From the NCBI RefSeq assembly GCF_003018115.1, contig NZ_CP027457.1: a DNA stretch of 64,000 bases. The stretch is one strand, 5' to 3'. This stretch comes from Escherichia coli. Lineage in GTDB: Bacteria > Pseudomonadota > Gammaproteobacteria > Enterobacterales > Enterobacteriaceae. Below are positions 22,353 to 24,313 of this stretch, in pieces (within the stretch, counting starts at the first letter, position 1; the number at the start of each line of letters is the position of its first letter). The position numbers and the translations under genes were made by a program. Below the pieces are notes generated by a model. It worked only from the letters and a program-made list of their open reading frames with translations. It had not been told where the DNA came from and made no database searches.

Positions 22353-22724
22353 ATGAATAAGATAATAGTTGATCTTGACGGTACTTTAACTGAGGAAGAT
22401 ACAAATGATTATACTAAAGTTAAACCAAAACTAAAAGTTGTTAAAAAATTGTATGAATTTAAAAAAATGGGATTCAGTATTGTAATAATGACAGCAAGGA
22501 ATATGCGAACATTTGATGGTAATATTGGAAAGATTAATATACATACACTTCCTGTAATCATTGACTGGCTTAATGAAAATAATATCCCGTACGATGAAGT
22601 TATTGTGGGGAAGCCATGGTGCGGTAATAAGGGATTTTATGTTGATGATCGGGCACTAAGGCCTTCTGAATTTGCAAGATTAAATCTTCAAGAGATAAAC
22701 GAATTATTTGATAAGGATAAATAA
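22353..22724 (+). CDS. HAD-superfamily phosphatase (small, subfamily IIIC-like)
   Basis: ORF 22275..22724 trimmed to MNKIIVDLDGTLT, the HAD motif I DxDGT; longer upstream start rejected because it would run through the ops element; AT-rich. Confidence 0.6.
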   Translation: MNKIIVDLDGTLTEEDTNDYTKVKPKLKVVKKLYEFKKMGFSIVIMTARNMRTFDGNIGKINIHTLPVIIDWLNENNIPYDEVIVGKPWCGNKGFYVDDRALRPSEFARLNLQEINELFDKDK

Positions 22725-24313
22725 TGCTTTTAATACTATCGTCTGCGTATATTGATATTGATTTACAGTCTGAATTTGGTCGGTTGCCACCGAGCATGTT
22801 ACCGCTAGGAAATAAACGATTAGTTCAACATCAAAAAAAACTTCTTAACACGAATGAGTTGATGATAATCACTTTACCTAAATCATATAAAATATCAGAA
22901 TGGGACAGGAAGTGGTTAGATAATAATAATATAAAAATAGTCTTTGTTAATGATGGTGGGGCGCTTGGTGAATCGGTATTATATGCTATTGAATATATTA
23001 AAACATTAAACATTTCTGAACATCTCAGGATTTTGTATGGAGATACTTTGATTCTTTCAAATATAAAAGATGACTCAAATGTAATCGCTGTATCTAACTC
23101 TGAGGATAATTATAACTGGGCTAGAGTCGAAAATCAGAATGCATATATAAAAATATCCACCGAAAATGATGTGGACATTTTAGGAGGAGATATACTTTGT
23201 GGCTATTTTTCATTTAGTGATATAGATCTTCTTCGGGAGTGTTTGATTTCTAATAATTATAACTTTATTGAAGCCATAAAAAGTTACCATGCAAAAAGTT
23301 TTCTATTTGTTAGAAAAATTGATGAATGGTTGGATTTTGGTCATGTGAATACTTATTACAAGTCAAAGATGAAATATACAACGCAAAGAGCATTCAATGA
23401 GTTATATATTAATTCAGATTGGGTATGCAAATCTAGTCAGGATTATGAGAAGATTTTAGCTGAGGCGAACTGGTTTGAAAAAATACCACTGGAATTAAAA
23501 AAATATATACCACAGTACTTAGGTAAAGAGTCTAAAAATAATAAGAGTGCAAGTTATAAACTAGAATATTTGTGTCATACTGCACTAAATGAATTATATG
23601 TCTTTAGTGAATTACCGCTAACTGTATGGAAGTCAATATTGGAAAAATGCCTTGACTTCGTTCGAGAGAGTAAAAGTTATATACCATCTGATAAAGAACG
23701 ATTCTCAACAATTAATGAGTTATTGATTGACAAGACCAATGCTAGGCTTGTCTCTTTCTGTTCAGAAAAACAATTTTCTATTAATGATAAATGGGACTTT
23801 AAGGGGAAAAGGATTAGTGTCTCTGATATACTTGATGTAGCGGCTAAATATATCCCTAATGATAATAATCCATCTTTGATGCACGGAGACTTATGCTTTA
23901 GTAATATATTATTTGATTTTAGAGCAGGTAGAATTAAATTAATTGATCCTCGAGGATTATCTGTTGATAGAAATTATACAATTTATGGTTCATACTATTA
24001 TGATTTAGCTAAACTTAGTCATTCAATATTGGGAATGTATGATTGGATAGTGGCAGGCTATTGTGATGCGAACATCTGTGAACGAAAAATAGAATTGAGT
24101 TTTGTTAATGATAAAAAAATCGAAAATATAAAAAGTATTTTTATTGACATGATTACTGCACAATTCGATATTACTCTAAATGAATTGTACGCAATGCAAA
24201 TTTATCTATTCTTATCAATGTTACCACTCCATTCAGATGATGTGCAACGGCAAAAAGCATTGTTCGCAAATGTCTTTAGATTATATGAACTTTTACAGGA
24301 GATTGAAAAATGA
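22724..24313 (+). CDS. Fused protein: N-terminal sugar-phosphate nucleotidyltransferase-like domain, C-terminal APH/choline-kinase-like phosphotransferase domain
   Basis: 529 aa; LPLGNKRLV nucleotidyltransferase-like N-terminus; HGDLCFSNILFD kinase catalytic motif near the C-terminus; TAATG overlap with the upstream gene. Confidence 0.55.
   Translation: MLLILSSAYIDIDLQSEFGRLPPSMLPLGNKRLVQHQKKLLNTNELMIITLPKSYKISEWDRKWLDNNNIKIVFVNDGGALGESVLYAIEYIKTLNISEHLRILYGDTLILSNIKDDSNVIAVSNSEDNYNWARVENQNAYIKISTENDVDILGGDILCGYFSFSDIDLLRECLISNNYNFIEAIKSYHAKSFLFVRKIDEWLDFGHVNTYYKSKMKYTTQRAFNELYINSDWVCKSSQDYEKILAEANWFEKIPLELKKYIPQYLGKESKNNKSASYKLEYLCHTALNELYVFSELPLTVWKSILEKCLDFVRESKSYIPSDKERFSTINELLIDKTNARLVSFCSEKQFSINDKWDFKGKRISVSDILDVAAKYIPNDNNPSLMHGDLCFSNILFDFRAGRIKLIDPRGLSVDRNYTIYGSYYYDLAKLSHSILGMYDWIVAGYCDANICERKIELSFVNDKKIENIKSIFIDMITAQFDITLNELYAMQIYLFLSMLPLHSDDVQRQKALFANVFRLYELLQEIEK

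Follow-up and report, generated by a model that had tools for sequence, protein, structure and literature searches.

What role does a 529-amino-acid protein, seemingly a nucleotidyltransferase (NT)-like domain fused to a kinase, serve in an Escherichia coli O-antigen gene cluster? The question arises from a 64,000-nucleotide window of E. coli contig NZ_CP027457.1, wherein the open reading frame (ORF) for this protein exists as described in an earlier, sequence-only reading of the DNA. As read from the sequence, it begins with an ATG at position 22724 and ends with a stop codon at 24311–24313 on the plus strand. The ORF resides in a 9-kb island of approximately 30% G+C that is flanked by galF (21114–22019) and gnd (31451–32857), downstream of the colanic-acid genes. 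The DNA of the locus is 99.8 to 100% identical to that of five complete E. coli genomes, one of which is typed O20:H12. In these genomes wzx and wzy are annotated as "O20/O137 family" and the ORF itself as "hypothetical protein". The locus is the E. coli O20/O137 O-antigen cluster. The interpretation we favor, to which we assign a probability of roughly 0.55, is that the protein is an orthologue of KfoE from the E. coli K4 capsule cluster and is the central enzyme of a coupled HAD phosphatase, KfoE-type protein, and NT module. By analogy with a phage pathway, this module would make a nucleoside diphosphate (NDP)-furanose, most likely NDP-fructofuranose, for surface polysaccharides.

Fold and conservation of the two domains

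The features on which the following analysis depends are located in the window as listed here.

22305–22315, plus strand: ops/JUMPstart element GGCGGTAGCGT, read from the sequence, ahead of the gene that opens the O-antigen operon
22353–22724, plus strand: HAD-superfamily phosphatase of 123 residues (TIGR01689, PDB matches, RefSeq start)
22724–23338, plus strand: N-terminal NT/GT-A-like domain, residues 1 to 205 of the 529-residue protein
23339–23419, plus strand: inter-domain segment, residues 206 to 232, GHVNTYYKSKMKYTTQRAFNELYINSD (from conservation and phage alignment)
23420–24313, plus strand: APH/choline-kinase-like kinase domain, residues 233 to 529
24310–25065, plus strand: standalone sugar-phosphate NT of 251 residues, signature MIVIPMAGMSSRF...KPKYML (PDB 4EVW match, signature alignment)

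A Pfam scan of the 529-residue protein finds nothing for the N-terminal half, and its APH match is below significance (i-E = 0.0022, 18.2 bits) and covers residues 369 to 431 only. NCBIfam returns a weak GlmU-type match (1.6e-5), phmmer finds no relative in the PDB, and a profile of 27 family sequences has the ACAD11 kinase domain (E = 0.01) as its sole PDB match. Because the Pfam, NCBIfam, and PDB phmmer and hmmsearch matches are marginal, domain assignment required structure prediction. An AlphaFold2 model built on the 27-sequence alignment (mean predicted local distance difference test score, or pLDDT, of 80.4; predicted template modeling score of 0.78) includes two folds, as had been proposed for a fusion of an NT-like domain with an APH-type kinase. 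The N-terminal half adopts a Rossmann-like NT (GT-A-like) fold and matches sugar-1-phosphate NTs by structure, and the bilobal, protein-kinase-like C-terminal half matches APH/choline-kinase-like kinases. The best Foldseek matches of the model include GMPPA/GMPPB complexes, and LicA, LicC, MurU, NahK, and (for the N-terminal domain) HddC are also among the structural matches.

The protein is a remote member of the APH family (PF01636 superfamily) that can be recognized through its fold and motifs. The catalytic-loop pattern noticed earlier in the C-terminal half, HGDxxxxN, is intact, as is DPRG. The loop is H387-G-D389-LCFS-N394 (nucleotides 23882–23905; HGDLCFSNILFD spans residues 387 to 398), and the metal-binding Asp, D408, lies within IDPRG (nucleotides 23942–23956). 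The spacing of approximately 13 residues from catalytic loop to Asp is like that of APH(3′). Among 82 full-length homologues, over which the conservation values given here were measured, H387, G388, D389, N394, D408-P-R-G, K236, K243, and E247 are all at least 97% conserved. K236, which the model places on a strand, and the pair K243 and E247, which it places on the next helix, are invariant in the homologues and are candidates for the ATP-anchoring Lys (β3) and Glu (helix C). Judged by these residues, the kinase domain looks catalytically competent, and by analogy it is predicted to be an anomeric kinase acting on a furanose phosphate.

The N-terminal half was originally noted to resemble NTs without a clean nucleotide-binding loop. 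Indeed, this part of the protein (MLLILSSAYIDIDLQSEFGRLPPSMLPLGNKRL at its N-terminus) has the NT fold and is devoid of the G-x-G-x-R NTP-binding loop. The region where the loop and the subsequent Lys of canonical enzymes would be found reads LILSSAYIDIDLQ...LPPSMLPL in the O20 protein and has an equivalent in all KfoE-type members; the "PK" Lys is absent as well. Because the loop was tested for and is absent, the fused domain should not be filed as a canonical NT. Retained are G106-D107-T108 (nucleotides 23039–23047), which is near-invariant, and WLDFGH at residues 202 to 207 (nucleotides 23327–23344), wherein W202-L-D204-F-G206 ("W-x-D-x-G") is near-invariant. Mean column conservation is 0.558 for this domain versus 0.573 for the kinase, and 24 positions of the domain are near-invariant, including E17, N30, Q37, D61, D107, T108, Y130, W132, and D204. 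A domain whose conservation equals that of the kinase is not decaying. Because it is so strongly conserved, it must bind a sugar phosphate, an NDP-sugar, or the partner NT.

The inter-domain segment is the most conserved stretch of the family (0.746) and includes an R-x-F-N motif that, in our alignment, is common to the AfhE-type phage enzymes described below. The pLDDT falls below 50 in exactly two segments, residues 7 to 29 (nucleotides 22742–22810) and 207 to 225 (nucleotides 23342–23398), which correspond to the degenerate "NTP loop" region and to the stretch between the domains. The model suggests that these segments might become ordered only upon binding of a ligand or partner, a behavior suggested for the inter-domain segment by its being both low in pLDDT and the most conserved.

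A coupled three-gene module

The gene upstream of the 529-residue ORF was mechanically called as a 149-residue ORF (22275–22724). The start of this ORF is over-extended (excess part 22275–22352) because the ops/JUMPstart element, which we take to be an RfaH-dependent ops motif, falls within it. The gene start is the ATG at 22353, RefSeq agrees with this choice, and the TIGR01689 match begins at residue 27 of the long ORF. The protein of 123 residues matches NCBIfam TIGR01689, "EcbF-BcbF capsule biosynthesis phosphatase", with 195.9 bits (cutoff 162) and carries the DxDGT motif of HAD enzymes as IVDLDGTLT. Its PDB matches are 1XPJ (E = 5e-56), 9IQW (E = 6.5e-10), and, weakly, GmhB. This phosphatase is predicted to strip the non-anomeric phosphate off a furanose bisphosphate.

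The 251-residue protein encoded downstream matches PDB 4EVW, a "nucleoside-diphosphate-sugar pyrophosphorylase" from Vibrio cholerae, with E = 4.7e-83 over 243 residues. It carries the canonical NT signature when aligned, gives weak IspD-, GlmU-, and RmlA-type matches in NCBIfam, and is predicted to make an NDP-sugar. The RefSeq/PGAP label for this gene (positions 10111–10866 of the extracted locus L001) is "glycosyltransferase family 2 protein", and the same label recurs for the NT of K4, the ST69 type, PCN033, and TOE17.

The HAD stop codon overlaps the start of the 529-residue ORF as TAATG, and this ORF overlaps the NT gene as ATGA. These overlaps indicate translational coupling of the three genes. 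Relatives were sought in a collection with one genome per species (100,044 species), in which 548 stretches encode a relative, and 82 loci from Gamma-, Beta-, and Alphaproteobacteria and Bacteroidota were surveyed for synteny by tblastn. The HAD gene is directly upstream and the NT gene directly downstream, on the same strand, in 77 of the 82 loci; the NT is present in all 82 and the HAD in 79, and one of the three loci without a HAD match has no upstream sequence. A role in aminoglycoside resistance is rejected on the basis of this context, namely the invariant synteny with HAD and NT partners in polysaccharide loci.

The trio is not confined to O-antigen loci. The lipopolysaccharide (LPS) core cluster of V. 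mimicus carries it amid heptosyltransferase genes, with waaA on one side and the Kdo kinase gene on the other, and the NT of this trio is virtually the same protein as V. cholerae 4EVW (556 bits). In Aeromonas veronii the trio adjoins waaL. The commonest companions are WavE-family proteins (PF07507), for which no NCBIfam model exists; their genes are found within 8 kb of the trio in 45 of 87 loci, often directly downstream (for example, L006 12317–13237 and L036 10321–11244). These proteins are candidates for the cognate glycosyltransferases of the trio. No WavE-family gene was found within 8 kb in the O20, K4, or ST69-type locus, where unrelated transferases are present. A constant trio accompanied by variable transferases is the pattern expected for a donor-synthesis module.

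Relatives in the K4 capsule locus and in phages

A kps region 2 sequence (L092) encodes, in order, GalE, a 546-residue protein, a 686-residue family 2 glycosyltransferase, an insertion sequence, a 477-residue protein, a HAD protein of 126 residues, a 522-residue protein, a 243-residue NT, a UDP-sugar dehydrogenase, and another family 2 glycosyltransferase. Because the 686-residue protein is the K4 chondroitin polymerase (PDB 2Z86, 1455 bits), this region is the K4 cluster kfoA–G. Across the full length, the 522-residue protein shares 44% identity with its O20 counterpart (E = 2e-147). The name KfoE is not attached to this sequence in the public databases, whose entries say "capsular biosynthesis protein". 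The identity was instead established from the lambda-Red homology arms used to delete kfoE from K4 (PMC7925653, Supplementary Table 3). These arms map with zero mismatches at 12250–12299 and 13869–13918 of L092 and flank exactly the 522-residue ORF (12300–13868). KfoE is a homologue of the O20 529-residue protein. P0073, an E. coli homologue also considered as a KfoE candidate, turned out to belong to another O-antigen-type locus.

Deletion of kfoE yields non-fructosylated chondroitin (PMC7925653, PMC8858990, PMC3673904). This widely used deletion also takes the ATG of the NT gene (13865; gene 13865–14596) and shortens the HAD gene (11929–12309) by its final three codons. The knockout behind the label "fructosyltransferase" is therefore polar on both neighbors, and KfoE has the fold of a kinase plus an NT-like domain rather than that of a recognized glycosyltransferase. 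The K4 polysaccharide contains glucuronic acid, N-acetylgalactosamine, and fructose only, and kfoA, kfoF, and kfoC explain the first two. Because K4 region 2 leaves no other sugar unexplained, activation of fructose is most naturally ascribed to the trio. The one other candidate transferase in K4, KfoD, has no Pfam or NCBIfam match.

These observations also bear on a different division of labor, wherein KfoE-type proteins would be bifunctional. The C-terminal domain would be the activation kinase, and the N-terminal GT-A/NT-like domain would be a furanosyl (fructosyl) transferase using the NDP-sugar made by the neighboring NT; the trio would be self-sufficient, and the label "fructosyltransferase" would be partly correct. 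The NT fold is related to GT-A, conservation of the N-terminal domain equals that of the kinase, and its invariant polar residues include D107 and D204, which occupy the metal-binding Asp positions of NTs. Loss of the NTP-phosphate loop alone would be expected of a domain that binds an NDP-sugar rather than an NTP. Moreover, the O20, K4, and ST69-type loci lack a WavE-family gene, and KfoD belongs to no recognizable family. The diversity of acceptors and the association with WavE weaken this proposal, however, and we regard it as unlikely.

The K4 and O20 systems share the two-domain architecture with its degenerate N-terminal signature and kinase motifs, the order and overlap of the genes (HAD of 126 residues upstream, NT of 243 residues downstream in K4), and a surface-polysaccharide locus positioned behind an RfaH-type leader. 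They differ in their export systems, the K4 capsule being ABC-transporter-dependent (kps, group 2) and the O20 O antigen being of the Wzx/Wzy type. Transferases and glycan acceptor also differ between the two, and KfoD is unique to K4. In a neighbor-joining tree the O20 protein falls in a subclade with KfoE and Vibrio and Aeromonas proteins, with 44 to 47% mutual identity.

Sequence comparison places the O20 protein in the KfoE family, with phage AfhE as a distant relative. As summarized in a paper published in 2026 on phage DNA that bears arabinosylated 5-hydroxycytosine (PMC13326640), AfhE of E. coli phage HY126 is bifunctional, consisting of an N-terminal pyrophosphorylase and a C-terminal kinase. 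The kinase converts D-arabinofuranose-5-phosphate to the 1,5-bisphosphate, AfhF (a Mg-dependent HAD phosphatase) removes the 5-phosphate, and the N-terminal domain of AfhE finally forms UDP-arabinofuranose. The counterparts of AfhE and AfhF are, respectively, gp52:53 and gp51 in RB69 and gp82 and gp81 in DLP3, and the DLP3 AfhF homologue is reported to match 1XPJ.

AfhE-type enzymes were retrieved from phage genomes by tblastn with the O20 protein. In Acinetobacter phage AbTZA1, the genes are ordered SIS isomerase, 557-residue fusion, 126-residue HAD, thymidylate-synthase homologue, and glycosyltransferases, which matches the published order of isomerase, AfhE, AfhF, and thymidylate-synthase homologue. 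The kinase half of the O20 protein aligns with the 557-residue protein (residues 222 to 437, E = 4e-11), and the catalytic motifs are almost identical. The O20 and AbTZA1 HAD proteins match each other with E = 4e-13, and the latter matches PDB 9IQW with 5e-45. Two subfamilies can be distinguished by their N-terminal signatures.

AfhE-type subfamily: four T4-like phages and Enterococcus phage 9183; ILGAGLATRL...IPKVLV or IPAAGRGTRM...YPKAMI
KfoE-type subfamily: O20, K4, O78, ST69, PCN033, TOE17, Vibrio, Aeromonas, Prevotellaceae, Variovorax, and phage phiRSL1; LI.S.AY...PP(S/C/A).LP where the loop and Lys would otherwise be

Both types have an N-terminal NT fold fused to a C-terminal APH-like kinase, share the kinase motifs HGDxxFSN...DPRG...G..YD.AK and the R-x-F-N linker, and adjoin a small HAD protein of the same family. 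The logic reported for AfhE, from sugar phosphate to sugar bisphosphate to sugar 1-phosphate to NDP-sugar, is also that which we propose for O20. However, overall identity between AfhE-type enzymes and the O20 protein is 15 to 18%. The phage N-terminal domain is canonical (GAGLATRL...PK) and is reported to be active, with no standalone NT; the phage product glycosylates 5-hydroxycytosine in DNA rather than a polysaccharide, and the sugar probably differs. As judged by these alignments, the O20 protein probably works like AfhE in its kinase half and with the same phosphatase partner, yet belongs to a distinct subfamily.

No standalone NT adjoins the AfhE-type genes within the 6.6 to 10.6 kb examined, whereas KfoE-type members are always adjoined by a standalone, canonical NT (O20, K4, O78, ST69, PCN033, TOE17, phiRSL1, and the 82-locus survey). 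In addition, plain phmmer sees the N-terminal domain of AfhE-type phage proteins as an NT (LicC, 7.8e-5, and UDP-glucose pyrophosphorylases) but not that of the O20 protein. The coincidence of a degenerate fused domain with a standalone NT, together with this contrast, supports the earlier suggestion that the adjacent 251-residue gene supplies the transferase. The sequence-only reading as a whole thus withstands this analysis, except that it overlooked the HAD partner and the KfoE and AfhE relatives. A phage-type SIS isomerase gene is found within 8 kb in 1 of 82 bacterial loci versus 4 of 4 T4-like phage loci. This near-absence of an isomerase from the bacterial module is consistent with a substrate of which cells already have plenty.

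A comparison with LicC-LicA and AmgK-MurU had been recommended. LicA, LicC, MurU, and NahK do appear among the structural matches, and kinase-then-NT logic is alike in these systems, such that the O20 pair might be a salvage-type kinase and NT, comparable to LicA-LicC, AmgK-MurU, or NahK-GlmU, whose substrate would be unphosphorylated, for example choline, N-acetylmuramic acid, or a hexosamine. The comparison does not extend to sequence, wherein similarity to LicA, AmgK, or NahK is not significant and the nearest relatives are KfoE and AfhE. The coupled AfhF-type HAD is almost invariant and makes sense only with a bisphosphate to trim, and the K4 capsule and the relevant glycans are without phosphocholine or N-acetylmuramic acid. 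A salvage function is therefore very improbable.

Two phage loci stand apart from the T4-like group. Ralstonia phage phiRSL1 (L003 3395–11407) encodes a KfoE-type protein with a degenerate N-terminus (ORF236) and a standalone NT (ORF235) near hydroxymethylcytosine-glucosyltransferase-like genes, an APS kinase gene, a sulfotransferase-like gene, and a thymidylate-synthase homologue; no HAD homologue was found within 11.4 kb. These genes suggest an uncharacterized hypermodification of DNA with sugar. Enterococcus phage 9183 (L097 1915–5123), whose host is Gram-positive, has a HAD gene and a canonical-NT fusion right after thymidylate synthase and dUTPase genes. The fusion is intermediate, with 20 to 25% identity to both the AfhE and KfoE types, and these genes are probably another donor pathway for DNA glycosylation.

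The proposed activated sugar and its glycans

Our proposal draws on the folds, motifs, synteny, and homologies found here, including the identity of KfoE, and on two sets of published results, namely the loss of fructose upon kfoE deletion and the AfhE and AfhF activities as summarized in PMC13326640. From these we infer which substrate is used and in what order the steps run, which nucleotide is involved, what the N-terminal domain does, and that O20 LPS bears the sugar. In the first step, the APH-like kinase would phosphorylate the anomeric hydroxyl of a furanose phosphate drawn from central metabolism, most likely converting β-D-fructofuranose-6-phosphate to fructose-2,6-bisphosphate. D-arabinofuranose-5-phosphate and β-D-fructofuranose-6-phosphate share ring stereochemistry, and it is therefore chemically plausible that a homologous kinase acts on the anomeric hydroxyl of fructose-6-phosphate. 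The HAD phosphatase would then take off the distal phosphate to give fructose-2-phosphate, and the 251-residue NT would join this product with an NTP to form NDP-fructofuranose. Finally, a locus-specific glycosyltransferase, of the WavE family in approximately half of the loci, would add the sugar. The fused NT-like domain is probably a pseudo-enzyme partner comparable to GMPPA, which would either bind the sugar phosphate or NDP-sugar or provide a docking site for the standalone NT.

Two known arrangements resemble parts of this scheme. The ADP- and GDP-heptose pathways (HldE/HddA, GmhB, HldE/HddC) likewise combine an anomeric kinase, removal of the distal phosphate by a HAD enzyme, and nucleotidyl transfer, and GmhB and HddC appear, respectively, as a weak match of the HAD protein and a structural match of the N-terminal domain. 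Their substrates, however, are heptopyranoses, they include no pseudo-NT domain, and heptose kinases have ribokinase or GHMP folds rather than the APH fold. GMPPA/GMPPB and the large and small subunits of ADP-glucose pyrophosphorylase also pair a conserved, impaired NT with a competent one, a likeness that serves as a lead only; the fusion partner of the O20 pseudo-NT is a kinase rather than a left-handed β-helix domain.

Several observations weigh against the fructofuranose interpretation. The only published O20 structure is a ribofuranose-galactose disaccharide without fructose, no E. coli O antigen has been reported to contain fructose, and the review that compiles these data states that the O20 structure does not fit the galF–gnd cluster (PMC7685785). 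With 44% identity to KfoE and 15 to 18% to AfhE-type enzymes, the substrate specificities of individual members could differ. Because the overlapping genes make the kfoE deletion hit both neighbors, its phenotype implicates the module and no particular activity within it. The N-terminal domain is not decaying and is too well conserved for the label "inert", and the neighbor-joining tree is without bootstrap support. An NDP-fructofuranose donor in bacteria is not described in the literature searched, in which queries for UDP-, CDP-, or NDP-fructose, fructose-2-phosphate, kfoH, and kfoI gave nothing relevant. Lastly, Campylobacter jejuni HS1 attaches fructose via a different gene, and there is no obvious trio in the HS1 locus. 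The module is thus not the sole route to fructosylation.

The published O20 structure directs attention to pentoses. The same three steps might operate in O20 on D-ribofuranose (from ribose-5-phosphate through ribose-1,5-bisphosphate to NDP-ribofuranose) or on D-arabinofuranose (from arabinose-5-phosphate made by KdsD or GutQ). Ribose-5-phosphate and arabinose-5-phosphate are available in E. coli without an extra isomerase, which the module lacks. TIGR01689 is named after capsule genes of Pasteurella multocida. Arabinose is reported in the type B capsule of that species. The biochemically described relatives AfhE and AfhF are reported to act on arabinofuranose-5-phosphate, and the pentose that has been reported for O20 polysaccharide is ribofuranose (PMC7685785). 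However, the known route to β-ribofuranose is a phosphoribosyl pyrophosphate (PRPP)-dependent gPRT together with a PRP-type phosphatase, which renders NDP-ribofuranose unneeded (PMC11231755, PMC10299916), and the disaccharide misfits a Wzx/Wzy cluster with four to five transferases (PMC7685785). K4, moreover, is without ribose or arabinose and yet has an orthologous trio that is required for fructose, and in the tree the O20 protein is distant from the arabinose enzymes and groups instead with KfoE and the proteins of the Vibrio core type. We consider a pentofuranose donor doubtful.

The PRPP-dependent route itself, suggested by the ribofuranose reported for O20 and by the neighboring HAD phosphatase, was examined as an explanation for the O20 genes and rejected. 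The gPRT and PRP systems (Klebsiella O4 and O7, the CriT and CrpP activities of Haemophilus influenzae type b Bcs3, and C. jejuni Cj1432) also add furanoses, are located in O-antigen or capsule loci, and employ a small HAD-type phosphatase for a distal phosphate. However, these systems use PRPP as donor, and dephosphorylation follows transfer to the glycan. In gPRT/CriT the catalytic domain is a PRTase-like α/β core with helical bundles (PMC10299916), whereas the O20 folds are those of an NT and a kinase. Neither the HAD protein nor the 529-residue protein has a sequence match in the PDB to 7SHG or to the Thermobacillus composti or Bcs3 enzymes.

Returning to fructofuranose, a property of this sugar could reconcile the module with the O20 structure. 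Fructofuranosides are very acid-labile, and chemical defructosylation of K4 is mentioned in the literature. Because of this lability, side-chain fructose could be lost when O-polysaccharide is released with mild acid. We therefore propose tentatively, at odds somewhat short of even, that the module is the missing donor pathway for fructofuranosylation with KfoE as its anomeric kinase. By this proposal, the O20/O137 and O78 O antigens would bear a fructofuranose side group that is acid-labile and has been lost in standard mild-acid structural work, as would many glycans of Vibrio, Aeromonas, Shewanella, and Bacteroidota. If true, such a side group would explain why the O20 cluster does not fit the published structure, and overlooked acid-labile substituents are predicted for the medically relevant O78 (enterotoxigenic and avian pathogenic E. 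coli) and O20/O137 O antigens.

The activated donor for fructofuranose of bacterial capsules and LPS, as in K4, is not identified in the literature searched. Fructofuranose is also present in the K52 capsule and in the V. cholerae LPS core; the latter lends support to the fructose assignment, given the trio in the V. mimicus core cluster and its 4EVW-like NT. The searched literature likewise contains no link of KfoE to a kinase or to an NDP-fructose pathway, although the primary AfhE paper, which that literature did not include, may mention bacterial homologues. What is proposed as new here is an AfhE/AfhF-like activation pathway, its mechanism inferred, with a split NT, a conserved pseudo-NT domain, and probably a different sugar, serving polysaccharides. 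That KfoE-type proteins are kinases of such a pathway is a concrete hypothesis that can be tested in the test tube. If it is true, several thousand proteins now called "hypothetical", "capsular biosynthesis", or "aminoglycoside phosphotransferase" would be re-annotated, with relevance to the engineering of K4 for chondroitin production. The family also ties polysaccharide biosynthesis to phage sugar-activation genes for DNA hypermodification and offers an example of a conserved pseudo-NT domain paired with an active paralogue.

A sensitive DNA search located related cassettes in 129 of 5,426 complete E. coli genomes, one group of which has the K4 kps locus described above. The O78 cluster of enterotoxigenic strain H10407 (NC_017633.1; L093 5667–11597) includes a WavE gene and a trio encoding the HAD, a 540-residue protein, and a 244-residue NT, along with three ordinary glycosyltransferase genes and manCB. 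The published O78 backbone (GlcNAc2-Man2) needs just three glycosyltransferases, and the four extra genes may add an overlooked labile substituent. In E. coli TOE17 (L098 8831–14853) the module is found with WavE in an ABC-transporter-type O locus. In PCN033 (L099 3367–10888), kps region 2 is composed essentially of a 1157-residue multidomain protein, one unknown, and the trio. The module is also present on a 129-kb H63 plasmid (NZ_CP071075.1). In the ST69 O15:H18 kps locus, the trio is located beside a galactosyltransferase-like gene, a large phosphotransferase gene, and an acyltransferase gene. This locus is compatible with the K52 capsule, which we take to contain fructose. Finally, an insertion in the cps locus of C. 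jejuni IA3902, CJSA_1353–1355, encodes "unknown" proteins of 240, 507, and 132 residues (PMC7901785, Table 4), which, judged by protein size, may be a Campylobacter trio of NT, KfoE-type protein, and HAD.

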